64,000 nt of DNA. Origin: Candidatus Poribacteria bacterium. GTDB taxonomy: Bacteria; Poribacteria; WGA-4E; WGA-3G. Within the stretch, counting starts at the first letter, position 1. Each line of letters opens with the position of its first letter. The position numbers were made by a program, and so were the translations under genes. The DNA lies in assembly GCA_022820835.1 (NCBI GenBank), contig JAJEET010000039.1, positions 702 to 64,701 on the forward strand, read 5' to 3'. The notes under the pieces are model-generated. The model did not search any database and was not told the DNA's origin. It saw only the letters and a program-made list of their open reading frames with translations. Shown here piece by piece: positions 17,585 through 37,857 of the stretch.

Positions 17585-17803
17585 ATGAAACTCGAGCAAG
17601 TGATAAACCAGGACCCTGAGATTCACGGTGGAACTCCCGTATTTAAAGGAACACGGGTGCCTGTAGAGGCACTCATCGATCACCTGAAATCCGGAGAGAG
17701 TCTTGACTATTTTCTTGAAGGATTTCCGTCTGTTACTCGGGAGCAGGCGATCGCTTTTTTGGAACTCGCCTTGACCCACGCACTCCGATCACGCCCACAA
17801 TAG
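17585..17803 (+). CDS. DUF433-type antitoxin-like protein (solitary)
   Basis: 72-aa ORF containing IHGGTPVFKGTRVPVEALIDHLKSGESLDYFLEGFPSVTREQAIAFLE. No PIN/DUF5615-like partner ORF follows. Confidence 0.7.
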   Translation: MKLEQVINQDPEIHGGTPVFKGTRVPVEALIDHLKSGESLDYFLEGFPSVTREQAIAFLELALTHALRSRPQ

Positions 17804-18092: not shown

Positions 18093-18120
18093 TTGACAAA
18101 TTTCCTTTTTCGGTTATAAT
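18093..18120 (+). promoter_or_regulatory. Consensus sigma70 promoter at the head of the AT-rich island
   Basis: TTGACA at 18093-18098, a 16-nt spacer and TATAAT at 18115-18120, about 80 nt upstream of the first island ORF. Confidence 0.55.
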
Positions 18121-18154: not shown

Positions 18155-18198
18155 ATATTTTCAAATCATTAAAACGTTCAAATGGATCAATGCACATT

Positions 18199-18490
18199 AT
18201 GTATCGGTACAGAAAATGCGAGAAAAAAATAAAGTGGAAAACACGCCTTTTGCTGTTCCCTATCTGTCTATGCCTTTTTATTTTTTTTTATAGGTTGTGA
18301 CGGTGAAATGCCTATCCTAGACCCTCCAGAACCGCCACCGCCCTTACCGTCCATATCAGACAAACTTGTTGCGCACCTCTATTTTGACGCTACACTCTCC
18401 AGGCAAGGCTGTGTTGTTCTGGGTTTAACGCATTGCACCGAGATAGGTCCCTCTTTAGAGAGTGTGATTTTAAGGCGGTTGGAGAGATGA
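18199..18490 (+). pseudogene. Small lipoprotein gene split by a +1 frameshift in a T9 homopolymer
   Basis: ATG 18199 encodes MYRYRKCEKKIKWKTRLLLFPICLCLFIFF and then hits a stop at 18298. Removing one T from the T9 run (18281-18289) joins it to ...FFIGCDGEMPILDPPEPPPPLP..., the frame of ORF 18308..18490. That gives a textbook signal peptide plus lipobox (FIGC). Confidence 0.5.
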
Positions 18491-18567: not shown

Positions 18568-20283
18568 TTGAACGAATTACTACAACAAATCTTTAATCTT
18601 GAAACCCCAATTGGTAGAACCATTGTCTACTGGATTCGTATATTCTTTTGGGTCGGTGTTGGAAACTACATTTGGCATTTAGGACGGTTAGGATATGAAT
18701 ATATCTGTCTTAAATTTGTTCAAATCAAAATCAAAAGGGGTCTTGATGTTATATCTCCTGATTTACTCAATCGGTTAGCTAAATCCGTAGTCATCCGTAC
18801 AGGTATTAGAGTAAGTATTATTTACCGGCGAATTCATGATCTGGGTAAAATTAAGCAGAACGGCGGTGAAATTGATCATAATGTCCTCGGTGACATCCAT
18901 GCAGGGGCAACCAGCAGAAAGGCAGGTTTATCGAACTATATCCTCGGTATTCTTATTATCCTCGGTTTAGTTGGGACATTGTGGGGATTAACGACGGCAG
19001 TTATTGAAGTCCAACCGCTTTTGCAAGACATTGATGACCTTGACCAATTGCCCCAAATTTCACGTGCCCTACAGGAAACATTAAAGGGCATGGGCACCGC
19101 ATTTAAAACGACGTTAGCAGGTTTGGTAACATCACTCGGTTTGGGGGCTTTGGGATGGCTTTTTAGTCTTTTAAACTCGGCTTTTCTCACCCAGTTTGAA
19201 ACAGTTGTAGCCACAGAAATAATTCCGCCTTTCAAACAAACCCCAGAGTCATTAATTGAATCCTCTGTAGATCAACTTCAGGTAAGTGTTGGCGAATTTA
19301 AGTTAGCAACGGAAGACAATGTTCGGAGAATGCAGGAATCAATTCAACAATTAACAGAGAAGTCATGGGATGCCTATCTGGAACAACAATACGTCATCGC
19401 AAATGAGTTGCGTGAGATTCCAGGAGAACTTCGTGAAAGTTTAGGCGGAATAAGTGAATATCAAGTCCTGATTAAATCCACGGTGGCATCTTTTGAGAAA
19501 ATGACTGAGAATTTCATGACCGAAATCTCAAAAAATCAATCTGCTGTGGATACTATGGTTGAAGAATTTAGGACATTAACAGAGAAATCCATGTCTCAAG
19601 TTTCGGAGTATCAAGCAGCACTACTTGAAGGTTTAGAAAATGTCGTATCAGAGTTTAAAGAAGAAAGTACGGAATTGAAAACGACAATTCGTGATGCTCA
19701 GAGTTCGCAAGCAAAATTTATTGACGAGCTTGCTAACAACCTTGCTGGCATTCTTGAGAAACAGTTTCAACCCATTGTAGAAAATCAGCAAGATATGATG
19801 GAAGGACTCCGTGTAACGGTTATTAATATACGCCAAATTGCTGACGAGTTACAGATACGGTCTGCTCTTGAGAAGCAGAACGAAGTTTTTGAGAGCATCA
19901 AATCAGAGTTGATACAAAATCAGCAGGAAATGCGTAATAGACTATCGGAATTAATAAGTAAACTTCAAATTATACCTGCTCTTGAGGCACAGAATAAAGT
20001 TTTTGGACGGATTGAAAGTCATCTGGCAGGGCAACGTGACTTGGTCGATAAGCAGATAGAAATAATGCAAACATTAGATAGCAGTGTGAACCGGCTCCAA
20101 CAAACTTTTTCAAAAACAGAATCGGATGAGCAGCAACGTACAGAGCAAATGTTACAGCAGCTCAGGCTGAATTTTGTCGCGCTCAGCGAGAAGATGGATA
20201 CATTGAACCATACAATGAGCAAGCCAGGTTTATATCGTTGGGGATCGGAAATTCGCCGTTGGTTTGGTGTTTTTCGCAGGTAG
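18568..20283 (+). CDS. MotA/ExbB/TolQ-family channel protein with a C-terminal coiled-coil tail of about 350 aa (ZorA-like architecture)
   Basis: Three TM segments. MotA_ExbB-like signature LGILIILGLVGTLWGLTTAV ... LKGMGTAFKTTLAGLVTSLGLGALGW. The remainder is heptad-rich and Q/E-rich with an internal repeat (ALEKQNEVFESIKSEL / ALEAQNKVFGRIESHL). TTG start with GGAG 10 nt upstream. Confidence 0.75.
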   Translation: MNELLQQIFNLETPIGRTIVYWIRIFFWVGVGNYIWHLGRLGYEYICLKFVQIKIKRGLDVISPDLLNRLAKSVVIRTGIRVSIIYRRIHDLGKIKQNGGEIDHNVLGDIHAGATSRKAGLSNYILGILIILGLVGTLWGLTTAVIEVQPLLQDIDDLDQLPQISRALQETLKGMGTAFKTTLAGLVTSLGLGALGWLFSLLNSAFLTQFETVVATEIIPPFKQTPESLIESSVDQLQVSVGEFKLATEDNVRRMQESIQQLTEKSWDAYLEQQYVIANELREIPGELRESLGGISEYQVLIKSTVASFEKMTENFMTEISKNQSAVDTMVEEFRTLTEKSMSQVSEYQAALLEGLENVVSEFKEESTELKTTIRDAQSSQAKFIDELANNLAGILEKQFQPIVENQQDMMEGLRVTVINIRQIADELQIRSALEKQNEVFESIKSELIQNQQEMRNRLSELISKLQIIPALEAQNKVFGRIESHLAGQRDLVDKQIEIMQTLDSSVNRLQQTFSKTESDEQQRTEQMLQQLRLNFVALSEKMDTLNHTMSKPGLYRWGSEIRRWFGVFRR

Positions 20284-20310
20284 TAGTAGAAGGCAGTAGG
20301 AGAGATATTA

Positions 20311-20973
20311 ATGGACCTTCGGATGCGTCAAAATTCTGCTTTGAACGTGTGGCCCGCTTTTACCGATGTTTCCATCGCGATGCTGCTCATCTTTATATTT
20401 TTTCTTTTCATTCAATTTGTTTCCAACAGCAAGTTGATTTTGAAAATCCGAATGGAGAAAAAGCAGGACACGATACAAGAAGCTTTTGAAAAAAGGTTTG
20501 CCAATGAAATAAAAAGAGGTATTATCTCTATTGAACGGGATGGCAACCTGCAGCGATTTATGTTTAGTGACCGAATCCTATTTAAAACTGATGAGGCTGT
20601 CCTCCAACCGCTTGGAAGGTCTACACTCACTGCTGTTGGTCGGTTATTACAGAATTACAAAACGGACGAGAAGGGGCAGCAGTTGTATCAAAGTATTCAA
20701 ATTGAGGGACATACGGACAATGTCCCTATTATGTCTCCAGACCGTTCAAACTGGGAGCTGTCATCAGATCGAGCGATTGCCGTTTTACGTCTTTTTGTCG
20801 ATCATATTGGCATTGATCCGCGAACGCTAAAGGCAACAGGTTATGCAGAATTTCGTCCTGCTGCAGGTGATAGTTCTAATATAGAAGGTGCTAACAGTAC
20901 CGAAACGAAACGCGCGAAAAATCGCAGAATTGAGATCGTTTTAGTCTATTCGGAAACGGAGGGGAACAGGTGA
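20311..20973 (+). CDS. MotB/ZorB-like protein: N-terminal TM with conserved Asp plus OmpA-like peptidoglycan-binding domain
   Basis: WPAFTDVSIAMLLIFIFFLF resembles the MotB TM (Asp codon at 20365-20367). OmpA-like motifs are IEGHTDNVPI, SNWELSSDRAIAVLRLF and NRRIEIVL. Confidence 0.85.
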   Translation: MDLRMRQNSALNVWPAFTDVSIAMLLIFIFFLFIQFVSNSKLILKIRMEKKQDTIQEAFEKRFANEIKRGIISIERDGNLQRFMFSDRILFKTDEAVLQPLGRSTLTAVGRLLQNYKTDEKGQQLYQSIQIEGHTDNVPIMSPDRSNWELSSDRAIAVLRLFVDHIGIDPRTLKATGYAEFRPAAGDSSNIEGANSTETKRAKNRRIEIVLVYSETEGNR

Positions 20974-22352
20974 GCGTTTGTCCTTATGCAAATACGAGTG
21001 AGGTATGTGGCCTGCCAGCAGTAAATACGGATCAGGGCAGTATAGTTGCTTATTGCCAAAAGTGTTCTGAGGTTATTTTTCGATGTGCTTCGGGGCATTG
21101 GAATCGTGCTTTTGCGCGTTATTGCACACAATGTCGTCAAGAACTTGAGAAACCTGCACAATGGGGTATGGCTTCGGCAAATCCGCAACGCACCGCAACA
21201 CTGCCCCACATATCTTCTGTTGATGCTCTGAATCGTGATTACGGTTTCAATACTGGGGTTGTAAATATCCCTAAGATGAACGTTGATGGAGATTTGCCCG
21301 GAATCCTTGTGATTGATGGATTGATCGTCGTCCCGAATCCTAATGAAAAAAAATTGGATGCCTACACAATAGCGAATCCATTCGATCAGAGGAATCTTAA
21401 ATTGAAGTGGAGTATCTCTTACGATGAGGCGTTAACTTATGGGGCAACGCCAGTTTATCATGGGTTCCATCTATACTATGTTAGTTCGGCTGGTATTCGG
21501 CGACAGCCAGTTGTTGGCGGAGAAGTAAAACCTGTGGAATTGAATGATGTAACTTCCGCACCTATTCAACCTACTCCGAAATGCGCCCCACTGAAATGTT
21601 ATATCAATAGAAGTCCAACAATGATTGTTGGCTTGGAGCAAGGTGTGCTACTCTTAGACCTTGTAAATAATGAAAGTAACTATATTGGGCACAAATTTTT
21701 CAGCGAAAACACGGTGATGTCGCCCGTTCAGTGCCGAGAATATATAGTTTTCACTACACTTCAGGGACAAATCTTTACGCTTAACATGAATATGATTGGT
21801 GATAAGATGGTACCGCCAAAGGTGTATCGGGATATATCTTTCTCTGCTCCCATTTCGTTAAGCGGGAGGGTTTATTTTGAGGCTTTAAGCGGGAGCGGCA
21901 ACCGGAGCCTTGCATGTTTCGATCCGAGTTCGGGCAAATTGTCTAAAGTAATAGAAATGGACAACGACCCAGAAAGCAATTTTGAAAATCGCCAAGTTCT
22001 TTTCACACACCCTCCACTTACTGATGGAAACCGATTGTTTGTGTCTGATAGGTATGGAAAGCAGGTTTATATCTATGATATCGAAGATGGTTATTCATCT
22101 AAAAGAAGTTTGCCGCAAAACGATGTTCGATATATGTTTGCTCCGCACCTATCTATCGTTGTGAATAACCGAATTTATTCTCCGACTTCATACGGTTTAA
22201 CTACTCTGGATCTTACACAGAATTATGCCGCCGGACATCGATCATTGGCAATGGGGATGCCACCGGTACCGAAACCGATTGCCCGCCCTGTTCGGTATGG
22301 TGATAAATTGTTTATTTTATGTGAAGATCGACTACTGTGTCTCGGTTGTTAG
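20970..22352 (+). CDS. Double zinc-ribbon protein with C-terminal PQQ/BamB-like beta-propeller
   Basis: The GTG start overlaps the upstream stop (GTGA). The N-terminus has Cys pairs CPYANTSEVCG...CQKCSEVIFRC...CTQCRQEL. It is followed by repeated strand motifs (LIVVPN, HLYYVSS, YIVFTTLQGQIFTLN, GRVYFEAL, NRLFVSDRYGKQVYIYD, DKLFILCEDRLLCL). Confidence 0.6.
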   Translation: MSVCPYANTSEVCGLPAVNTDQGSIVAYCQKCSEVIFRCASGHWNRAFARYCTQCRQELEKPAQWGMASANPQRTATLPHISSVDALNRDYGFNTGVVNIPKMNVDGDLPGILVIDGLIVVPNPNEKKLDAYTIANPFDQRNLKLKWSISYDEALTYGATPVYHGFHLYYVSSAGIRRQPVVGGEVKPVELNDVTSAPIQPTPKCAPLKCYINRSPTMIVGLEQGVLLLDLVNNESNYIGHKFFSENTVMSPVQCREYIVFTTLQGQIFTLNMNMIGDKMVPPKVYRDISFSAPISLSGRVYFEALSGSGNRSLACFDPSSGKLSKVIEMDNDPESNFENRQVLFTHPPLTDGNRLFVSDRYGKQVYIYDIEDGYSSKRSLPQNDVRYMFAPHLSIVVNNRIYSPTSYGLTTLDLTQNYAAGHRSLAMGMPPVPKPIARPVRYGDKLFILCEDRLLCLGC

Positions 22353-22366
22353 GAGGTCGATTTATA

Positions 22367-24286
22367 ATGGAATACTTAATAAGTGTTCAGAGACATATTT
22401 TTTTTGTAATAGTTTTCCTTGTTTTGATGCTATTCTTGCCAGCAGCACATGCCAAACATATTATAGTTGTTTACGATGTGTCTGGTAGTATGATTGGCCT
22501 TAAAATTGGTGGGAGAACAGAAGTCTATATGGAGTCCGATGATATACGTCGGGTTAACGATTATTTGGTAGGTCTGCTATTTACGGATACGTCGCAATCT
22601 TTGCGTGATAGCAATGACACACACATTGAGGAATGCAAAGCTACGTTCGTCGGTAAACCTCTCTACCAGAGCGGTGATGTACTCACTTATGTCGAATATG
22701 CAAAACAAGGGAAGATAAAAATAAACAGATCAAAGGTATCTCGTAACGAATTTCAACGGCAGCTGCCAAACCCGATAAACCTAAAATCATCCTTCCCTGG
22801 GTTGGTTTCTTACTTGCTGCGCGCAGAGGTTGAGGTGTATGACGAATTATACCGTAAGGATGACAATGAAACGTATTGGGTCTTTGTAACGGATGGTGAT
22901 ATTGATAATAGTGGAAAAAGCGATCCTGGCATAACTACAGTCTTACAACGACAGGCAGCAATTGAAAAGGAATTTTATTCGCCACTAATATTGAGTCTTT
23001 TTGTTAACAATCATGTTAAAATTGAAGTTAGACAACTTCAAAAACGGGACGACATCAAGTCAATTTTTATTGCGACTCCAATAAAACCAAAACAGCCAGT
23101 GCGAAAAATACAACTCTCGAGAAATATGGAAGGGCAGTTTTTCAGTGAAACCTTAACTATTGACACGGAGAATTCCGCAAAAACGAAATTTAAACTCAAC
23201 AGTGTCGGTGTAGAAGTTGTTGATAAACACAACAGACCTCTTCAAATTGTGACTGAAGATAATGGATTCGGTGTGCTTGAAGTTCCGCCTATTTTACTTA
23301 ACGAAAATTCACCACCGTATGAATTTCAAATACTGCTTTCCGCACATCCAGAACTTGCTGCTCCCGGCAATGCGTTAAAACTTGAGGTCATATATAACTA
23401 CAATGGTAAAGATGAAGTCTACTCAGCCCCGCTGATGAACTATACAGCAGTTATTGACAGTATCTATGTTGCCACGCTTGAAGAGCCTGATCATCCGACA
23501 AAAAAGTTAGATATCGTTTTTTCTGAAGGTAAATATAGCCAAGCGTTGACTATTCAGAGTGAGAGTCCAAACATAGACGCGTTCCAAATCGGTGAAATCC
23601 GTTGTCAAATTCAGTATAAGGATACCCGTAAACTTTGCGATGTGACTGTGCCTCAAACAATAAAGCGTTTGGGTGAATCTTTTAACTTAGAAGTACCAAA
23701 AGAAAACCGTTTGGATTGGTATGGCAACAAAGTTGTATTTGAAATTGATTATCAATATGAGGGCGATACCAAATCAACTACGATTCAGATGCCCTTTAAA
23801 GTCCGAGGTGGTGGAACAGGTTTCCCAATGTGGTTGCTTTGGGTTCTAATTGCTATTCCTTTAGTTGGCCTTGTTTTACTATTGGTTCGCCAGATAAAGC
23901 CTATCCTTGTTCCTCCTCTACCTGTCTATCATGTTGCGTTAACCGAAGTGGGCGAAGGGGGCACTGAATTAGGGGAAACAAAATATGTTATATTTAAGGA
24001 CAAGGCTACACTTGAATTTGGGGCGCGTGGTTCCAATGAATCCCGTTTTGATGTTGGAAGTGAAGCTTTCTTGTACTGCGACAAGAAAAATATCATACTT
24101 TTTACTGATGCTGACGACGACGAAGGACAAATATTAGATTTACCAGAAACAATAACGTTGATTCGAGATGAAGATGATGAAGTCTGCGTCCGTTGTGAGA
24201 TAGTAGACGATACCTCTGACGAATCAGAGGAGGAGCGATCTATTATTGACGCGAATCCTTCTAATGATGACCCGCTTGGTGTATGA
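22367..24286 (+). CDS. Secreted von Willebrand factor A (vWA) protein with a single TM and an acidic cytosolic C-terminal domain
   Basis: AGGAGG RBS lies 10 nt before ATG 22367. Signal peptide ...LFLPAAHA, then the MIDAS motif IIVVYDVSGSM (22475-22492). TM segment FPMWLLWVLIAIPLVGLVLLLV. The C-terminal domain of about 125 aa ends in a D/E-rich tail ...NDDPLGV. Confidence 0.8.
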   Translation: MEYLISVQRHIFFVIVFLVLMLFLPAAHAKHIIVVYDVSGSMIGLKIGGRTEVYMESDDIRRVNDYLVGLLFTDTSQSLRDSNDTHIEECKATFVGKPLYQSGDVLTYVEYAKQGKIKINRSKVSRNEFQRQLPNPINLKSSFPGLVSYLLRAEVEVYDELYRKDDNETYWVFVTDGDIDNSGKSDPGITTVLQRQAAIEKEFYSPLILSLFVNNHVKIEVRQLQKRDDIKSIFIATPIKPKQPVRKIQLSRNMEGQFFSETLTIDTENSAKTKFKLNSVGVEVVDKHNRPLQIVTEDNGFGVLEVPPILLNENSPPYEFQILLSAHPELAAPGNALKLEVIYNYNGKDEVYSAPLMNYTAVIDSIYVATLEEPDHPTKKLDIVFSEGKYSQALTIQSESPNIDAFQIGEIRCQIQYKDTRKLCDVTVPQTIKRLGESFNLEVPKENRLDWYGNKVVFEIDYQYEGDTKSTTIQMPFKVRGGGTGFPMWLLWVLIAIPLVGLVLLLVRQIKPILVPPLPVYHVALTEVGEGGTELGETKYVIFKDKATLEFGARGSNESRFDVGSEAFLYCDKKNIILFTDADDDEGQILDLPETITLIRDEDDEVCVRCEIVDDTSDESEEERSIIDANPSNDDPLGV

Positions 24287-24411
24287 AATTATTTCTTGTC
24301 ATTTTTTCCTATTCATGGTATCTTGCACGCGCATGAGTCAGAAATTTTATTAACTATGAGCGTGCTTTGGAGCATGCCGAGTGACAATAATTGGATATTC
24401 AAGGAGAATGT

Positions 24412-24807
24412 ATGACGGGCATTGCTGATTTTTTTGGAGACCCATTGGTATGGCCGGCTATTGTTTATTTACTTGCTTATACTTTTGTATGGTTGATCGC
24501 ACTTGTGCTCGGTCAATTCTTAAAGAATCGATTTAGCATTGAGCGTGCGGCAAAAATAGCATGGAGAATTGCGCTTTTTATACATATTATCGGCGGAACA
24601 TTTCTTATAATTTGGCTTTGGGACAGAGCGCATAACCGATTCGCAGATGGGTTATATTCACTCCTTTATCTGCTTCTCTACATAGTAATTATGATTGCTG
24701 ATGTTTACTTGATATTTTCAATACTATCCGAGAATCGTAAAAAAACAGAAACTGACTCGCAGACTCCAAAAACAACAGGTAGATCTCGTAACCCAAAAAA
24801 GAGTTGA
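24412..24807 (+). CDS. Small polytopic membrane protein with a basic C-terminus
   Basis: Three to four hydrophobic helices (VWPAIVYLLAYTFVWLIALVLG, IALFIHIIGGTFLIIWLW, LLYLLLYIVIMIADVYLIFSIL). AAGGAG RBS lies before ATG 24412. Confidence 0.5.
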   Translation: MTGIADFFGDPLVWPAIVYLLAYTFVWLIALVLGQFLKNRFSIERAAKIAWRIALFIHIIGGTFLIIWLWDRAHNRFADGLYSLLYLLLYIVIMIADVYLIFSILSENRKKTETDSQTPKTTGRSRNPKKS

Positions 24808-31136: not shown

Positions 31137-32387
31137 ATGCAGAAAATCGTATGTATCATTGATCTCTCCGCTATCGAAATTCAGATTGGTGTTTTCACTG
31201 AAAAGAAATTTAAAATCATCCGTCCGGCACTCCCATGGAAGGTTGGATTTCGGCAAGTAACCGATGGTACATTAGTTTCTTGTTTTGGGGAAATGTTGGA
31301 TCGACTTGATCCAGACAATCCCGCGGAAGTTCGGTTCACAGACTTGGATGTGAAATTCAAGGAAATTACAGATGAAAAAACCTTAGAATGCTTATTTAAC
31401 GCATTTTTTCAGGAGATTTTTCATCGGAGGTTATCTGAACACGAATATTCTATGGATGCTATATCGGTATATGTTATTACACCGTTCGAGTGGAAACCCG
31501 TACACCGTCAACAGTTCAGGAAAGCATTCAAGCGTTTAAATAGCAAAATGCCGGTTTCATTTCTCAAGACATCAAATGTGACACTCCGGGGTGTACTCAG
31601 CCAGATTCTATGCCTTTCTGCCTATTATCAGAAGACGTGGATTAATATACTCACAGACCCAAACAAATGCCATCTGTTTCTGGTAGATTTTGCACGGAAC
31701 GATTTTGTAGTCTATCATACGATTTGTAATCAACTGGAAGACAGTATTATAGTTGAATTAACCGATATACTGCGGTTTATTGACTTCTTTATGGATATAG
31801 ATAAAAAGGTTTCAGATGTGCAAAAGATGTTTCAACAGGTTGAGGAGGGGCAGCACGTTGCAATTGGTTTTTCTGGCAGAATTGACGATACTGCTCTAAA
31901 GTTCATTGAATTGTTGCGAGCGCGACACAGCGCAACATTTCTTGAACCGCAGGAGACCGCAACACTTTTGGGTGGGGCAGAATTGGTTAGGTACTTTGAA
32001 GAAGAAAACCTTGAAAAACCACTTCACTTTATCTATAATTATTGCTTCGGTGTGCAGTTACCTGATGGAAAAAATGTTGATTTTGTCCCAAATACATGGA
32101 CACCCCCCTATCATCGTAAAAAAGCCTTTCGTGTCACGGGGGACGTTAAAGAATTCAATGTCCATCTTTACTGCGGCTTATCCATGACGACTAACAGCGA
32201 TGTCCATCATCTCGCGACACTTAAGATTGTCCCGCGGGAGAATAAAAAATATACATTGAACAGCCCGATGGAATTTATACTTTCTGTTACCTTGAATGAT
32301 GCTACGCATGGTACATTTGCTTTACATCTTCCAAATTCACAAGGGGCGCAATCGGTTGGATTTACTATACCAGTTTTGATGGACTAA
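31137..32387 (+). CDS. Degenerate Hsp70-like paralog (predicted pseudo-ATPase)
   Basis: Collinear with Hsp70 but with eroded motifs: IIDLSAIEIQIGVF (vs DLGTTNS), LFLVDFARNDFVVY (vs DLGGGTFD), VAIGFSGRIDDTAL (vs LVGGSTRIP) and ATLLGGAELV. The SBD-beta-like C-terminus reads YCFGVQLPDGKNVDF...EFILSVTLNDATHGTFALHL. Confidence 0.5.
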   Translation: MQKIVCIIDLSAIEIQIGVFTEKKFKIIRPALPWKVGFRQVTDGTLVSCFGEMLDRLDPDNPAEVRFTDLDVKFKEITDEKTLECLFNAFFQEIFHRRLSEHEYSMDAISVYVITPFEWKPVHRQQFRKAFKRLNSKMPVSFLKTSNVTLRGVLSQILCLSAYYQKTWINILTDPNKCHLFLVDFARNDFVVYHTICNQLEDSIIVELTDILRFIDFFMDIDKKVSDVQKMFQQVEEGQHVAIGFSGRIDDTALKFIELLRARHSATFLEPQETATLLGGAELVRYFEEENLEKPLHFIYNYCFGVQLPDGKNVDFVPNTWTPPYHRKKAFRVTGDVKEFNVHLYCGLSMTTNSDVHHLATLKIVPRENKKYTLNSPMEFILSVTLNDATHGTFALHLPNSQGAQSVGFTIPVLMD

Positions 32388-32423: not shown

Positions 32424-33629
32424 ATGTCTTATTTCAGATTTATATTATTCTTCACATTAATACTATTGGGTTTTGTTTCAATTGGGTTTTCACAAGGAGA
32501 CGGAGACCAACTAGACATTGAACCAGTTTTATCGGAATCTCTGCTTTGGACTGTGTTAATCGTTCTCGTGATACTTGCAATCCTTGCTTTGGTCGTTTTT
32601 TTCGTTGTTAAAATGGTTAGGCGATGGAAAGCAATGTGGCAAAAAACACAGGTATTATCTACAGACATAAATCATCTTACTCATGAATTAAATGGAAAGT
32701 TGGATACTATTCAGAAAATTAGCACCGGAAACGCCAACAAATTTAAAGAAATAGAATCAATACAAGCATCAGTTCAAAAAGACCAGGAAAGTATACAATT
32801 TGATATTGGGCAAATAAGAAACTATATCAGCCAAGTTAGCACGTATTTGGAAGAATTACATTCTAATAGAAGCGTTGATGTAGATGATACAAGGGTCTCA
32901 ATTGATTATCCTCTTGAAGTGCAAAAAGCAGTCCAATCGGCAAAAAATCGGGTATTGAAAATAGCAAAGGCTTACGAAAATGGCGAACCGATGGAATTAG
33001 TTGGTGTTGATAGCCCAACACCAAGTCAGAATGTGTTGATAATTTTAAATTCAATGGCGTATGATTTAGGTGAATGGAAAGCAGAAATAGAACAATCCGC
33101 GACAGCTAATTCCGAATTTGTAGATATTTTAACAAACGCAGAAAGTGACATCAGAGATAGGCTTAAACGCATTCGCAGTAAATCTCCAATTTCGCCTATA
33201 CCTCTTGATGTAAAAACTGATGTCAACACAGAAATTGAACTGAATCATATCCGCAATCAGTGTATTGCTTATGCTGCCTATTTTGAGGGAGTGCTTACCG
33301 GATATGAACTGACATATAAGGTTGATGAGGAGGAATATAACCAATTTATTCCACAATTTATCAGGTATCGCCTGTTTAATGAGGTTGCAGATTTTGTGCC
33401 CTTTGAAGATTTGCCTGAAAAAATGGAAAGATTTTTAAGGTTTTTAGATTATGAAGTGGTTCCTATTGAAATAGAGATAACGAAAGCTGATTCACATGTA
33501 CATGATATACGGGAATCAAGGCAATCTAACGGCGAACCTGGAACTGTCATTGAGATCGTTTCCCCAGGTCTTAGGCGTATAGCAGACGGTGAAATTGTTC
33601 AAAAACCGGTGGTCATCCGCGGAGAATAA
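32424..33629 (+). CDS. Membrane-anchored coiled-coil protein with a GrpE-like C-terminal domain
   Basis: Two N-terminal hydrophobic segments followed by RRWK, then a long coiled-coil region. The C-terminus ADSHVHDIRESRQSNGEPGTVIEIVSPGLRRIADGEIVQKPVVIRG mirrors the GrpE beta-domain pattern (FDPxxHeA...gtVvev.q.GY.l.gr.lRpA.V.V). Confidence 0.6.
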   Translation: MSYFRFILFFTLILLGFVSIGFSQGDGDQLDIEPVLSESLLWTVLIVLVILAILALVVFFVVKMVRRWKAMWQKTQVLSTDINHLTHELNGKLDTIQKISTGNANKFKEIESIQASVQKDQESIQFDIGQIRNYISQVSTYLEELHSNRSVDVDDTRVSIDYPLEVQKAVQSAKNRVLKIAKAYENGEPMELVGVDSPTPSQNVLIILNSMAYDLGEWKAEIEQSATANSEFVDILTNAESDIRDRLKRIRSKSPISPIPLDVKTDVNTEIELNHIRNQCIAYAAYFEGVLTGYELTYKVDEEEYNQFIPQFIRYRLFNEVADFVPFEDLPEKMERFLRFLDYEVVPIEIEITKADSHVHDIRESRQSNGEPGTVIEIVSPGLRRIADGEIVQKPVVIRGE

Positions 33630-33635
33630 CGCACA

Positions 33636-34688
33636 ATGTACACCAGACTCCTGATTGTCCTTCTAATCAGTGGATTTCTTATCAGTGCGGATGCTTTTGC
33701 AGAAGATGCCTTGAGTTTTGTACAGATTGTAGAGGGCATGACTCAGCAACGCCCGTCCAATACTCGCCAAACAATCGGACGGCGGTATGTGTGGAATTTT
33801 AAGAGAAGACCCTACACCGTCCTAATGACAATTGATCTGGAAAAATATAATTCATACTCCGGCAAAGAACGCTACGATATTCCCAAATTGGTTGAAGAGG
33901 GTAGAACAACTATTGGCAATCTAACGCGTGAGTTCCAACGTATCTTCAAACAAAATCGCAACTGGAATCGGCAGGACCGTGTTGATTTTGTCTTAAGCTT
34001 TGTCCAATCTTTGCCTTACACGTTTGATGACGTGACGACAGGTTATGATGAATTTAGAAGGTATGCCGTTGAAACACTGATTGAAGGCGGTGGCGACTGT
34101 GAAGATACGACGATCTTGGTGGCGGCTATTCTGCGTGGGTTAGGCGAAAAGGCCGCCCTGATTTTTACGCCCGGACACATTGCGATCGGTGTCAGTGGAG
34201 ATTTCACAGGATCATCGCTGACTTACAACGGTATCAAATACTTCTATTGCGAAACGACTGGAACGGGTTGGACCGTTGGTAAACTCCCGGCATCTGTCGG
34301 TAAAACTGTAGAGGCAATTGTCCCTTTAAGTCCTTCTAAGGTAGGTCCTGCACCGAAACCTGACAAGGTAACGACACCGACACCAGAAACGGATCCGACA
34401 CCCGTTATACCAGAACCTACACCAGAACAGCCACCTATCCAACCGGAGCCAGAACCGATAAAACCAAAACCTGAACCAGAACCCGAAAAGTCTAAACCTC
34501 CCAAAAAAGACACCTCAGAAACAGGTAGCACTGTGGGCATGGTGCTTGCAACGCTCTTTATACTTGTCGGTTTGGGAATACCCATTGCGTATATAGTCTA
34601 CCGTTTTGTCTTTGCAGATAACGATGATGACGATGATGACATATACTATGACGATACGCCAGAGTCAACAAATCCGTTAGACTGGTAA
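33636..34688 (+). CDS. Secreted transglutaminase-like/papain-fold cysteine protease-like protein with a Pro-rich linker, C-terminal TM and acidic tail
   Basis: Signal peptide ...SADAFA. Core GGGDCEDTTILVAAILRGLG (Cys codon 34098-34100) ... TPGHIAIGV ... YCETTG. The PxP linker spans about 60 aa. TM segment VGMVLATLFILVGLGIPIAYIVY. Tail ADNDDDDDDIYYDDTPESTNPLDW. Confidence 0.6.
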   Translation: MYTRLLIVLLISGFLISADAFAEDALSFVQIVEGMTQQRPSNTRQTIGRRYVWNFKRRPYTVLMTIDLEKYNSYSGKERYDIPKLVEEGRTTIGNLTREFQRIFKQNRNWNRQDRVDFVLSFVQSLPYTFDDVTTGYDEFRRYAVETLIEGGGDCEDTTILVAAILRGLGEKAALIFTPGHIAIGVSGDFTGSSLTYNGIKYFYCETTGTGWTVGKLPASVGKTVEAIVPLSPSKVGPAPKPDKVTTPTPETDPTPVIPEPTPEQPPIQPEPEPIKPKPEPEPEKSKPPKKDTSETGSTVGMVLATLFILVGLGIPIAYIVYRFVFADNDDDDDDIYYDDTPESTNPLDW

Positions 34689-34778: not shown

Positions 34779-35273
34779 ATGACCGCTCAGGAAAAAATAA
34801 GACTTACATGGCTCGTGAATATCGCTGTGGTATGTTTAGGTTTAGGTATTATGCTGCCGGTTATGCGAATTGATGCGAACGATGGCACTATCCGCGGATT
34901 TATCATGGCGTTTATCACACCTGGACCTTCAAGTTATTCGATTTTGAGTAGCGTCTGGGCATTGATAAAGAAAGGTATTGTCATGGACGTTATACTTGGG
35001 AGCATTATCTTTCTTTTTTCGGTTGTTTTTCCAATCTTGAAGTTAGGCGTGTTCTATCATACACTCAGTGGTGGTACACCGAACAGAGGTATTTCAGCAT
35101 TCGTTCACAAATGGGGTCGGTTTTCGATGCTTGATGTCTATATCGTCGCTATATTGATACTGACAATCAGGAGCCTCCCCGGTGGTGCACAGATTGAGCC
35201 GAGTTGGGGACTATTGCTCTTTACAATCTCGGTCGTTCTCAGCCTTTACATTTCATCACGCCTTGAGGCATAG
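34779..35273 (+). CDS. PqiA-like integral membrane protein (single-repeat)
   Basis: PqiA-family patterns: SILSSVWALIKKG, IIFLFSVVFPILKL, WGRFSMLDVYIVAILIL and EPSWGLLLFTISVVLSL. Confidence 0.6.
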   Translation: MTAQEKIRLTWLVNIAVVCLGLGIMLPVMRIDANDGTIRGFIMAFITPGPSSYSILSSVWALIKKGIVMDVILGSIIFLFSVVFPILKLGVFYHTLSGGTPNRGISAFVHKWGRFSMLDVYIVAILILTIRSLPGGAQIEPSWGLLLFTISVVLSLYISSRLEA

Positions 35274-35277
35274 ATTT

Positions 35278-37857
35278 ATGATTGATCACCTAAAAGATAT
35301 TCATCGTGTGCTATACCTACCGGCAGCACCAGAATCAGAGGAACCTCCATTCAAGGTTACCCCGATTAATGATCCCTATCTCTATACCGATGCGAACATC
35401 TATGTAGATACATTTGATAATCCGAACCAGTCTGTAAAGGTGATGGTATCAAATGTTGGTGACGGGAAGTTGCATGTTGAACGAATTCGTGTTCCTCGCG
35501 GATTTGAAAAGTGGATAAAACGGGCAGAAGGATCAAAACCTGCGACTTTGACATCAACATCAGATCCATTGGAACTTGAACTGAAACTCAACCTTAGAAC
35601 CCTACCAAATCCTTCATCGGAAAATATAGTAAAACTGAGCATCCTTTCCAATTCAAAACGCAAAACGTTTAGTGAGATATTGTTACGTGTGCAACCCCCA
35701 TGCACTCAATCTACCAATTTGACGCTCCCAGAATATATCAACTTTGGTGAGATAACTACTTATAAAGTCTCTATTGCTGATAACCGTGAAGATGCTACGG
35801 TACCGACAGCCGACTTTCTGCTCATTGGGGATTTTACGCCTTACCCTCCAACCCGTCTTGAAGTGATACAAAAAGACGAATCCTCTTTTGGTGCGAAGAT
35901 AACCACATCAAAAGGCGAATTGTCTTATGAATTGGACTTGCAGAAATCGGGAGTCGTAATGCCTCGAGAAAAAAAGACTGGAATTACACTAAAATATTTC
36001 CAACAAACTATTCCAATTCCAAATGTTACCCCACACAGATCATCAACGCAGATTTCAACATCGGATTCGGATTGGTTAGTTGTCCCACCTCAAATCCAAA
36101 CTGATGGATATGATACAACCGATTTACCTGTTTCTATAAATGTTGAAAAACTGGAAGCGGGGCGTAATGTTGCGGAGCTCGGTGTAGCAGATCAAAAAAT
36201 ATCGGTGTGGGCGTGGTATAAAGTTGTCAAAGAAACGGCATTGACGTTAGACAAGGAACAGGCAGATATCCACCATGTTGAAGTTTTCGGTGAGCAAGAA
36301 ACACCTTTACCAATTAATGTCGTATCAACAGAGGGACCGTCCCAATCCGTGATGATTTTTGAGGATTTAGATTTTCGATTTCCATTGGCAGGCAAAGAAC
36401 GGAGTAGTTATCTGATAGGCGATTTTAATCAATGGACGCCGCGCACGCTTTTTCTGAAAAAAAGAGATGACGGTTTTGGTCTTACACTGAGTGTTTCTGA
36501 AGGAACCTACCTTTATCGTGCCGAAATTGATGGCGAAATTCGACTTGACCCTACGCGGTTGGACGAGATAATCTGCTGTCCGCACGGAGTGGCATCCAAA
36601 ATACAGGTCAATCGTATTGAACAAAAGGTAACACTGCAAAACAGGTCTAAACAGAAGATAGGGTTTAAACTTCAATCTCTGACAGAATGGTTGCGTATTA
36701 AGCCTGAGACGCTTGTGCTTCCCGCAAGAAAAAAACGAGAGGTAACTGCAATAATCCGACCCGAACGCCTCTTACCAGGGCTCAATTTAGGATGGATACG
36801 GCTGGAATCGGAAAGAGAACCGATAAAGTCGTTTCTCGCTCCTGTTTATGTTATGGGTGTGACAAATGGAGCTGTCCCTATCCTCCGAAATGAAGAATTG
36901 ATTTTTCCGCAAATTGAACAAGGCAAAGTAGAGGGCGTTCCGCTGGCACTTGACATCGTTGGTGAAGGTGAATTGAAGGGTGAAGTGCAGCCGTCTACTG
37001 TCTTGCGTTTTGTAGAAGCGGATTGGCATGTTCAAAACGAGACGGCATTTGAACCAATGACAGCTGCACCACTTGTTCAAGTGTTGAGTGAAAGACCTTC
37101 TAACGCCTATCGTAAACAGGTTCGTGCGTCTCTGGTTACAGATTGTTATCTTGCGAACCGTCGTGTGCATCGTTTTGATGCCAAATATGATATGGTTCAC
37201 CTTGTCACAGAACCGCCCGCTTTATATTTTCCCAAAGTGCATCTATTTGATGATCCACAGCATGCTGATATTACGGTAAAACGCAGTGATGGTAAAGGCG
37301 ACATTGTATGTAATGTTGAAATACCTGATGCGTTAAAACAGACCGGATTATTAAGGGTTGAGAATGACGCTGAGACAAATATATCTGATCGTTGTGGATT
37401 TGTGCTTAATCCGCAGGCTGTAACGGATGCTGGACGTGTTTCTGAGAGTTTACACCTTCAGGACAAAAGGTCCGGTATGGTGCTCCCAATTCAATTCGCG
37501 GTGGATTTTGTCGGAGGTCAAGCGAAGATTGATGTTAACGCTCAGGTGAAACGCACAAATCTATCATCTGGTGGCATACCGTTAGTGATTACCAATATCG
37601 GTGAAACTGAGTTACGGATATTTGAGGTGCGATTTAAAAATATGCGGTTTTACCTCTCATCGCATCTGACTTCGCAGCAACGTACCCTTCTCCCTGGGAA
37701 ATCTATTGAGAGACTTATAAAAGTAAAAAAAACATTGAGTTTATTAGGGAAAACAACAGTTCGGGACGCGCTTATTATTAGACTCAATGATCCACAGTTT
37801 CCTAACGGAGTCTTTGAAAAGGAAATCCAAGGACATATTCCTGGTTTTAGACGTTAA
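35278..37857 (+). CDS. Large cytosolic multi-beta-sandwich protein with an AMPK-beta/CBM48-like (E-set) domain
   Basis: I place the start at ATG 35278 (MIDHLKD), 4 nt after the upstream stop. The longer ORF from 35182 overlaps the PqiA-like gene. PapD/ASH-like strand motifs are VMVSNVGDGKLHVERIRVP, VTLQNRSKQKIGFKLQS and LVITNIGETELRIFEVRF. The CBM48-like motif is YLIGDFNQWTPRTLFLKKRDDGFGLTLSVSEGTYLYRAEIDGEIRLDP. Confidence 0.55.
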   Translation: MIDHLKDIHRVLYLPAAPESEEPPFKVTPINDPYLYTDANIYVDTFDNPNQSVKVMVSNVGDGKLHVERIRVPRGFEKWIKRAEGSKPATLTSTSDPLELELKLNLRTLPNPSSENIVKLSILSNSKRKTFSEILLRVQPPCTQSTNLTLPEYINFGEITTYKVSIADNREDATVPTADFLLIGDFTPYPPTRLEVIQKDESSFGAKITTSKGELSYELDLQKSGVVMPREKKTGITLKYFQQTIPIPNVTPHRSSTQISTSDSDWLVVPPQIQTDGYDTTDLPVSINVEKLEAGRNVAELGVADQKISVWAWYKVVKETALTLDKEQADIHHVEVFGEQETPLPINVVSTEGPSQSVMIFEDLDFRFPLAGKERSSYLIGDFNQWTPRTLFLKKRDDGFGLTLSVSEGTYLYRAEIDGEIRLDPTRLDEIICCPHGVASKIQVNRIEQKVTLQNRSKQKIGFKLQSLTEWLRIKPETLVLPARKKREVTAIIRPERLLPGLNLGWIRLESEREPIKSFLAPVYVMGVTNGAVPILRNEELIFPQIEQGKVEGVPLALDIVGEGELKGEVQPSTVLRFVEADWHVQNETAFEPMTAAPLVQVLSERPSNAYRKQVRASLVTDCYLANRRVHRFDAKYDMVHLVTEPPALYFPKVHLFDDPQHADITVKRSDGKGDIVCNVEIPDALKQTGLLRVENDAETNISDRCGFVLNPQAVTDAGRVSESLHLQDKRSGMVLPIQFAVDFVGGQAKIDVNAQVKRTNLSSGGIPLVITNIGETELRIFEVRFKNMRFYLSSHLTSQQRTLLPGKSIERLIKVKKTLSLLGKTTVRDALIIRLNDPQFPNGVFEKEIQGHIPGFRR

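Follow-up and report, generated by a model that had tools for sequence, protein, structure and literature searches.

A probable ZorAB-type motor pair at the head of a conserved FtsZl1 operon in Candidatus Poribacteria

The locus

We analysed a 64,000-nt stretch of DNA (hereafter the window) from a Candidatus Poribacteria bacterium (assembly GCA_022820835.1, contig JAJEET010000039.1, positions 702 to 64,701 of the forward strand), in which two adjacent genes encode a ZorA-like motor subunit and a ZorB-like stator subunit. The two genes head an operon lying in a block of low GC content (about 0.40 versus about 0.50) that extends from roughly 18 to 38 kb and contains twelve plus-strand genes, tightly spaced or overlapping, the last of which ends at 37857 (Table 1). 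We consider it very probable that they form a ZorAB-type motor pair and that this pair belongs to an FtsZl1 operon, that is, to the gene neighbourhood of a large tubulin-like protein. The homology, the architecture, the conservation of the key residues and the gene linkage reported below are direct observations.

Table 1. Features of the motor pair and of its operon (positions are those of the window; TM, transmembrane helix)
Feature	Position	Strand	Remarks
ZorA-like motor subunit, 571 aa	18568..20283	+	TM1, cytoplasmic domain, TM2, TM3, long helical tail; library, profile and model searches
TM1, residues ~18-38	18619..18681	+	model helix 14-56; aligns with ZorA TM1
Membrane-proximal cytoplasmic domain, residues ~39-120	18682..18927	+	15 K/R vs 7 D/E; ZorA counterpart is residues 48-127 (PMC11946911)
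TM2, residues ~121-146	18928..19005	+	invariant G133, L134, G136, T137, G140
TM3, residues ~176-203	19093..19176	+	invariant A178, F179, G185 and T181/T182 pair
Alpha-helical tail, residues 223-571	19234..20280	+	3.6-residue amphipathic periodicity; conserved C-terminal tip PGLYRWGSEIRRWF
ZorB-like stator subunit, 220 aa	20311..20973	+	GGAG-type ribosome-binding site 7-12 nt upstream
Asp19 codon GAT, predicted proton-binding Asp	20365..20367	+	in WPAFTDV; aligns with ZorB Asp26
OmpA/MotB-type peptidoglycan-binding domain, residues ~47-215	20449..20955	+	begins ~8 residues past the TM
Promoter-like site TTGACA-16-TATAAT	18093..18120	+	12/12 consensus match; probable operon promoter
Small lipoprotein-like gene split over two frames	18190-18300, 18308-18490	+	by comparison with relative L028
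460-aa protein	20970..22352	+	Cys-rich zinc-ribbon-like N-terminus, possible beta-propeller (PQQ_2 0.077 only)
649-aa membrane protein, vWA-like	22337..24286	+	signal-like N-terminus, D47xS49xS51, T185-D186-G187, TM near 500, cytoplasmic C-terminus
138-aa small polytopic membrane protein	24391..24807	+
FtsZl1-type tubulin-like protein, 1163 aa	24853..28344	+	Tubulin_2 (PF13809) at residues 6-369, 9.7e-44; acidic C-terminus
Hsp70-like protein, 909 aa	28351..31080	+	N-terminal Cys cluster, Ig-like domain(s), Hsp70/actin-fold ATPase
416-aa protein	31137..32387	+	co-conserved (L020); no family assignment
401-aa membrane protein	32424..33629	+	coiled-coil-like segment
350-aa protein	33636..34688	+	signal peptide, weak transglutaminase-like core (0.0044; LapG-like 1e-4), Pro-rich linker, C-terminal TM
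PqiA-like membrane protein, 164 aa	34779..35273	+	5.9e-12
891-aa open reading frame, last gene of the low-GC block	35182..37857	+	CBM48/AMPK1_CBM-like (glycogen-binding-like) stretch

The ZorA-like subunit

An earlier note on this DNA, made from the sequence alone, had described two open reading frames (ORFs), the first of them for a 571-aa protein with three TM helices and a MotA/ExbB signature. Both ORFs and all the quoted motifs were found where it had placed them, and the description of the protein agrees with the structural model, the charge topology and the invariant motif residues. Precisely, TM2 and TM3 carry the motifs GLxGTxxGL and TAFxTTLxGL, GLVGTLWGL being residues 133-141 and GMGTAFKTTLAGLVTSL residues 174-190. 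In the family-profile alignment the T137 codon (18976-18978) falls on Thr147 of E. coli ZorA, a residue that touches ZorB Asp26 and is part of the selectivity filter (PMC11946911). The topology obeys the positive-inside rule, with 15 K/R and 7 D/E in the loop 39-120 and 2 K/R and 6 D/E in the loop 147-175, and the charge distribution fits the topology of ZorA, in which both the TM1-TM2 domain and the tail are cytoplasmic.

To assign the protein to a family we considered library matches, profile searches and a structural model. Among the PADLOC models it matched those of ZorA alone (ZorA3, 1.6e-11 and 5.4e-11, the second alignment spanning TM2 far into the tail), the best of them partially and with 41 bits, which is no family-level match; the Pfam model MotA_ExbB was sub-threshold (0.012). 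A profile of the motor domain (the first 235 residues) was then searched against 1.84 billion representatives, and it recovered 2,173 representative clusters at E < = 1e-3, of which 299 also pass E < = 1e-10. The best 150 of the 2,173 representatives are mostly ~400-790 aa long, i.e. they consist of a motor plus a long C-terminal extension. In 90 family members that were examined, the ZorA1 model matched at < = 1e-5 in 62, ZorA3 in 53 and MotA_ExbB in 23, the best ZorA-model score being only 1e-27. Hence the lineage is nearer to ZorA than to generic MotA/ExbB/TolQ, yet it is not canonical ZorA1-3. In a metagenome scan the single pattern of a narrower alignment mostly gave shorter MotA-like proteins (~330 aa), which belong to other families and were set aside.

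A motor-domain profile built on 22 sequences was compared with all sequences of the PDB. The top match was the Shewanella type I ZorA (8vvn_C, 8.7e-8), in an alignment that takes in TM1, the cytoplasmic domain, TM2, TM3 and, behind the latter, a conserved LExF...P segment; E. coli ZorA followed at 8e-3, TolQ at 9e-3 and ExbB at 1.7, and MotA/PomA were not matched by this profile. Using hhalign, the motor domain and the Shewanella ZorA fragment were related with 94.7% probability. The single sequence of the A subunit, or a profile of its narrow family, gave coiled-coil noise or nothing against the PDB. As regards the structure, AlphaFold2 with 28 close homologues gave a predicted local distance difference test (pLDDT) score of 51, and we used a model built on 120 diverse sequences, with a block-mean pLDDT of ~87-97 over residues 1-220 and one dip to 77 at 71-80.

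The cytoplasmic tail

In the same model, residues 226-570 are predicted, at low confidence, to be almost wholly helical with short breaks. The hydrophobic power spectrum of the tail has a single sharp peak at 3.60 residues with a power of 149 (300 shuffles: 43 +/- 15, maximum 113), and the power at 3.5 residues is merely 4.3. With such a peak and nearly no power at 3.5, the term "heptad-rich" used in the earlier note is wrong in detail, and a canonical heptad coiled coil is ruled out by the 3.6 periodicity. All of the 28 close homologues peak at ~3.58-3.64 (z ~12.6), and the tails of the wider family have a median period of 3.59, with z > 3 in 93% of the members. Judging from this periodicity, the tail appears to be one phase-coherent amphipathic helix of the near-straight-bundle kind. 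Such a helix is compatible with the ZorA tail as described, namely a long-pitch, right-handed five-helix bundle (PMC11946911).

Depending on the choice of its start, the tail is 349-366 aa long, which at 0.138-0.15 nm per residue corresponds to ~48-55 nm if the helix is continuous; the previous figure of ~50 nm, for ~355 aa, was therefore reasonable as arithmetic. Across the 90 relatives tail lengths range from 140 to 464 aa. Close homologues have a total length of 547-776 aa and tails that differ by up to ~200 aa, and the C-terminal tip of the tail is conserved among homologues. The family consensus (P0003-P0120 compared) contains a duplicated segment of ~40 residues, SQVSEYQ..LLEGLEN..S.FK.ES..LKTTI. 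From this duplication and from the variation in length, the tail appears to change its length by gain and loss of repeats.

The ZorB-like subunit

The partner carries an OmpA domain (PF00691, 1.5e-13) and matches the PADLOC models ZorB1 (1.7e-23) and ZorB3 (1.1e-20), both near full length. In the PDB, the alignments of the ZorB chains 8vvn_B (1.7e-11) and 8qyd_F (2.6e-3) start at residue 11-13 and reach the end of the protein; those of MotB and PomB start only at residue 47 or 65. Peptidoglycan-binding homology starts ~8 residues past the TM, which ends near residue 38, and this leaves no room for a plug or a linker of the MotB type, whose absence is what sets ZorB apart from MotB (PMC11946911). 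The segment NWELSSDR at residues 147-154 matches the peptidoglycan-binding pattern N-x-x-L-x-x-x-R and may correspond, with the same spacing, to N152/L155/R159 of ZorB (PMC11946911).

The TM Asp is invariant in all of the 26 partners recovered, distant ones included. As a single sequence, the N-terminus gave nothing relevant against the PDB. A profile made from the first 70 residues of ten partners had as its two best matches E. coli ZorB and the ZorB-type chain 8vvi_A, and it puts Asp19 on Asp26 of E. coli ZorB (8qyd_F), with WPaFtD on FWISYAD; its E-value of 0.04 is marginal because the segment is short.

Three further claims of the earlier note hold on these results: a conserved Asp in the TM of the partner (GAT at 20365-20367), an OmpA-like peptidoglycan-binding domain behind it, and a ZorA/ZorB architecture of the pair, for which library and profile searches alike match ZorA and ZorB first. 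It had also named a closer relationship to ExbB/TolQ, with no tail, as the result that would speak against this architecture; sequence profiles favour ZorA, and the long helical tail exists. As the scores against ZorA and ZorB are too weak for Zorya types I-III, we considered the pair as a sister lineage of these types.

Downstream genes and conservation of the linkage

The earlier note had listed vWA, tubulin-like and Hsp70 proteins downstream of the pair, and nothing similar to ZorC/D/E/F/G. The latter point holds, since none of the 12 operon proteins gave a ZorC, ZorD, ZorE, ZorF or ZorG match in PADLOC, and the tubulin-like and Hsp70 assignments are borne out by family matches. The 649-aa protein was labelled vWA-like by motif alone, its DxSxS (47-51) and TDG (185-187) being invariant in 11 orthologues; neither the Pfam search nor the PDB profile search of this protein gave a match. 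In the family library scans no GTPase family other than that of the tubulin-like protein was matched by the operon proteins.

By a scan of genomes the gene pair was found in 23 loci, 19 of them from metagenome-assembled genomes (MAGs) of Poribacteria, corresponding to at least 19 species-level genomes. Wherever enough downstream sequence was available, in 17 Poribacteria loci, the order ZorA-ZorB-g460-vWA-g138-FtsZl1 is identical (36-95% identity); in 15 of these 17, FtsZl1 is followed by the Hsp70-like gene. A metagenome contig (L025) has the same gene order. FtsZl1 and the Hsp70-like gene lie upstream of the motor pair in L022, as does the Hsp70-like gene in an Omnitrophota MAG (L023), and differing subsets of g416, g401, the transglutaminase-like gene and g891 are found directly upstream of the ZorA-like gene in L018, L020, L029 and L030.

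A possible objection is that the two genes are chance ORFs or decayed pseudogenes, as a TTG start codon and the frameshift in the small upstream gene might suggest. We give this explanation practically no credence and consider it already refuted by conservation: the ZorA-like protein has 188 close, full-length homologues, the catalytic residues are invariant, the gene order is kept across proteins of 45-95% identity, and the genes are tightly spaced, with a ribosome-binding site.

Both in the window and in 14 of 14 relatives the operon is poorer in GC than its flank, and the upstream flank is common to the closest relatives only, which points to an accessory, mobile block. The loci L018 and L020 are separate contigs of one MAG, with diverged g401/g891/ZorA-like clusters; the system is thus paralogous within a genome.

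Distant relatives of the motor

More distant motor pairs are found beside other genes. Four independent metagenome loci (L024, L032, L108 and L111) combine the pair with a CHAT-ClpN protein, a TPR protein of ~1,000 aa, a ClpB-like AAA protein and a large Hsp70; some of them add a Ser/Thr kinase, a GrpE-like protein or a caspase-like peptidase, and in some CHAT is fused to AAA or TIR. With this cluster the same clade of motors seems to have one more, so far undescribed, output module. In L026 the pair occurs with two GrpE-domain proteins and a vWA protein, and in L109 a TIR protein lies immediately upstream of the pair and an nSTAND3 protein downstream, with CHAT proteins flanking. At L066 (828-11407) a ZorA-like protein of 516 aa and a ZorB-like protein of 214 aa are followed by a 1,566-aa SF1 helicase with REase_MTES_1575 and by a PLD-like protein; to judge by its gene content, this would be a nuclease-type Zorya-like system outside the ZorC/D/E layout.

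One ZorA-like protein, P0194 (L027, 10001-12319), has a TIR domain at residues 637-740, i.e. at the end of a tail of ~400 aa. Its gene forms a pair with a ZorB-like one, next to which lie a TIR gene of the ThsB type, a transposase gene and phage genes for terminase and portal. The TIR fusion is a direct argument that the output is presented at the tail tip. CHAT, TIR, STAND and nuclease domains are typical immune effector domains.

Comparison with known systems

The pair resembles the Zorya motor in several respects. On the side of ZorA these are the 3 TM, the cytoplasmic domain between TM1 and TM2, the conserved Thr of TM2 and the long helical tail; on the side of ZorB, the TM Asp and a peptidoglycan-binding domain joined without plug or linker. 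The gene order, A then B at the head of an operon, is also shared, and the best PDB profile matches are ZorA and ZorB (E. coli 8QYD, Shewanella 8VVN). It differs from Zorya in its scores, far under the family thresholds, and in its tail, ~350 aa versus ~507 aa in E. coli ZorA. Furthermore, ten other genes, FtsZl1 and the Hsp70-like gene among them, replace ZorC/D, ZorE and ZorF/G, and the host belongs to the phylum Poribacteria.

FtsZl1 was defined by Makarova and Koonin in 2010, linked with vWA and OmpA-family genes, and membrane remodelling was proposed for it (PMC2875224). The operon analysed here shares with those a Tubulin_2 protein of ~1,000-1,200 aa linked to an OmpA-family gene, and it has a gene whose product is vWA-like by motif; the novel GTPase and the protein kinase that are common there are absent. 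In that work the OmpA-family gene was taken as a membrane or porin-type protein, and a stator pair was not discussed, Zorya being then unknown (PMC2875224). In its supplementary table, two Deinococcus species have next to FtsZl1 a "MotA/TolQ/ExbB membrane protein" of 411 aa and an OmpA-family protein of 201 aa, entered there without comment, and an Hsp70 is given beside vWA genes in Magnetospirillum (PMC2875224). The "different output module" that the earlier note had suggested downstream of the pair is real as a conserved non-Zor module, but the neighbourhood of FtsZl1, vWA and OmpA-family genes has been known since 2010 (PMC2875224).

Tubulin/Hsp70/vWA clusters centred on a GTPase were predicted by Kaur et al. 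in 2020 to be conflict systems dependent on nucleoside triphosphates (NTPs), and they occur mainly in Firmicutes and Actinobacteria (PMC7159879). Shared with our operon is the presence of tubulin-family, Hsp70-family and TM-anchored extracellular vWA proteins in one cluster, the last being represented here by the protein that is vWA-like by motif; the defining GAP1/DO-type (TRAFAC-clade) GTPase and the components with FNIII repeats were not found here. The main text of that paper does not mention MotA, and it mentions OmpA once, in another context (PMC7159879).

The Zorya structure papers and a paper on MotAB evolution cover types I-III only, or leave ZorAB out, and in a 2023 study of FtsZ/tubulin evolution the Tubulin_2 proteins are still uncharacterised. 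We found no prior link of Zorya-type motors to FtsZl1 or Hsp70 operons in the searchable literature, which is limited, so that this is not a proof of absence.

Proposed mechanism and weighing of the alternatives

Zorya is at present defined by three effector sets, each acting on DNA. Our results support the view that the uncharacterised FtsZl1 system contains a Zorya-type motor, joined to a different conserved module. In full, we propose that the pair is a Zorya-type motor, a sister lineage of types I-III, which serves as the sensor and transducer of the conserved 12-gene operon, most likely in defence; we hold this whole statement with moderate confidence. Taken by itself, a role in defence against phages or other invaders has in our view about even odds.

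As for stoichiometry, rotation, tail bundling, trigger and the defence role, we infer the following sequence of events. By homology, five ZorA-like subunits would be ringed around two ZorB-like subunits held on the peptidoglycan, protons would pass via Asp19 of the ZorB-like and Thr137 of the ZorA-like subunit, and the five ZorA-like C-termini would bundle into a cytoplasmic tail of ~50 nm. A disturbance of the envelope may free the motor, and a rotation or a conformational change would then travel down the tail. The conserved tail tip would finally recruit or activate FtsZl1 and the Hsp70-like protein, as NTP-driven assemblers replacing the nucleases of canonical Zorya.

Several results weigh against this proposal. 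NCBIfam gave no ZorA match for the ZorA-like protein, and its ZorB1 model scored 32.6 bits with the partner versus a cut-off of 400, far under family level. With Foldseek, the motor domain was slightly closer to ExbB and TolQ than to ZorA (E-values from 5e-4 to 3e-2, target TM-score 0.4-0.62). The confidence of the tail in the monomer model is low, and a pentameric bundle is beyond what a monomer can show. Apart from the motor pair, no operon protein matched a PADLOC defence model. The operon is flanked by metabolic genes and does not lie in a defence island. Moreover, a housekeeping role in the envelope fits the wide conservation within a single phylum and the envelope-facing products equally well.

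The Foldseek result bears on another explanation, in which the two proteins would form an energiser like ExbB/TolQ, or a stator for flagella or gliding, and would resemble ZorAB only superficially. ExbB-ExbD and TolQ-TolR indeed have in common with the pair a 3-TM A subunit with a cytoplasmic helical domain, the GT motif of TM2 and the TM3 motif, besides being the top Foldseek matches; some sources label relatives of the protein as "biopolymer transport protein ExbB/TolQ", and a TonB-dependent receptor gene lies 6 kb upstream. However, the modelled fold of the motor domain confirms the superfamily without separating its 3-TM branches, and since Foldseek cannot tell ZorA from ExbB/TolQ the family call was made on sequence profiles, which favour ZorA and leave MotA/PomA unmatched. 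The partner, unlike ExbD/TolR, is of the MotB/ZorB type, with a TM Asp followed by an OmpA-type domain, and the A subunit has 3 TM and a 350-aa tail that ExbB, TolQ and MotA do not have. Flagellar MotAB/PomAB differ in having 4 TM, a plug and a long linker, in contrast to 3 TM, a tail and neither plug nor linker here. In the family library scans no TonB, TolA, flagellar or gliding genes were present in the operon, and no flagellar genes nearby in the window. We therefore regard this explanation as very improbable.

A second alternative keeps the motor and drops the defence role: the operon would be a housekeeping machine for envelope or membrane remodelling, in which the motor powers or positions a scaffold of the tubulin-like and Hsp70-like proteins. 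The motor might also pull the periplasmic vWA-like protein, in the manner of the TM-tethered vWA "force transducers" of TolQR-like motors. This would agree with the membrane-remodelling hypothesis for FtsZl1 operons (PMC2875224), with the vWA proteins proposed as partners of 5:2 motors (PMC12204202), with the envelope-facing products (the vWA-like and transglutaminase-like proteins, which have signal peptides, and the PqiA-like one), and with an operon that is found in at least 19 Poribacteria species-level genomes and has metabolic flanking genes. On the other hand, genes for TIR, CHAT, STAND and nuclease proteins recur next to relatives of the motor, one of which bears TIR on its tail; the genomic position of the operon varies, its GC content is under that of the flank, and one MAG has two copies (L018, L020). 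The anchoring on peptidoglycan together with a cytoplasmic tail of 50 nm points to inward signalling and not to pulling on the outer membrane. On balance we consider the non-defence alternative somewhat unlikely. The effector-type neighbours of the motor relatives, the TIR domain on the tail tip of P0194, the low GC content and the prediction made for similar clusters (PMC7159879) would support a role of the operon in defence.

We also considered a more specific reading, namely that a proton-driven rotary motor of the Zorya type is coupled, mechanically or allosterically, by its 50-nm tail to an FtsZl1 polymer and to the Hsp70-like ATPase, as a machine linking a membrane motor to a cytoskeleton. 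We think it rather doubtful. If true, the system would be either an immune effector acting through NTP-driven assembly instead of nucleases, or a non-immune membrane-remodelling device; in the latter case Zorya would descend from, or have been recruited into, general cell-biological machinery.

More generally, if our proposal is right, the ZorAB-type motor would be a general envelope-to-cytoplasm transducer, present in far more systems than the PADLOC types I-III. Its distribution suggests that the motor can be reused as a module, in more kinds of system than those now listed. FtsZl1 operons, uncharacterised since 2010, would gain through the motor a concrete and testable entry point.

Other features of the operon and of its flanks

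Nothing was found in the window with Rfam. The small lipoprotein-like gene upstream of the pair is broken at a T-run near 18279-18292, for which a genuine frameshift, an assembly error in the homopolymer and slippage are possible causes; its counterpart in the relative L028 (1614-1856) is an intact 81-aa lipoprotein-like ORF with the lipobox SIGC, directly upstream of the ZorA-like gene. The start of the 460-aa gene overlaps the stop of the ZorB-like gene. At the other end of the operon the 891-aa ORF overlaps the PqiA-like gene by 92 nt, and its true start is probably the ATG at 35278.

Between an RraA-like gene and the operon there is a 72-aa ORF of the DUF433 antitoxin-like type (17585-17803, plus strand), labelled by eye and negative in PADLOC. 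At L001 (8691-9307) a DUF433-type gene with 95% nucleotide identity precedes a PIN/DUF5615-like toxin ORF, which the window lacks. Both L001 and L028 have a Uma2-like ORF of ~300 aa at the junction of RraA and the operon, and this junction appears to be a variable spot.

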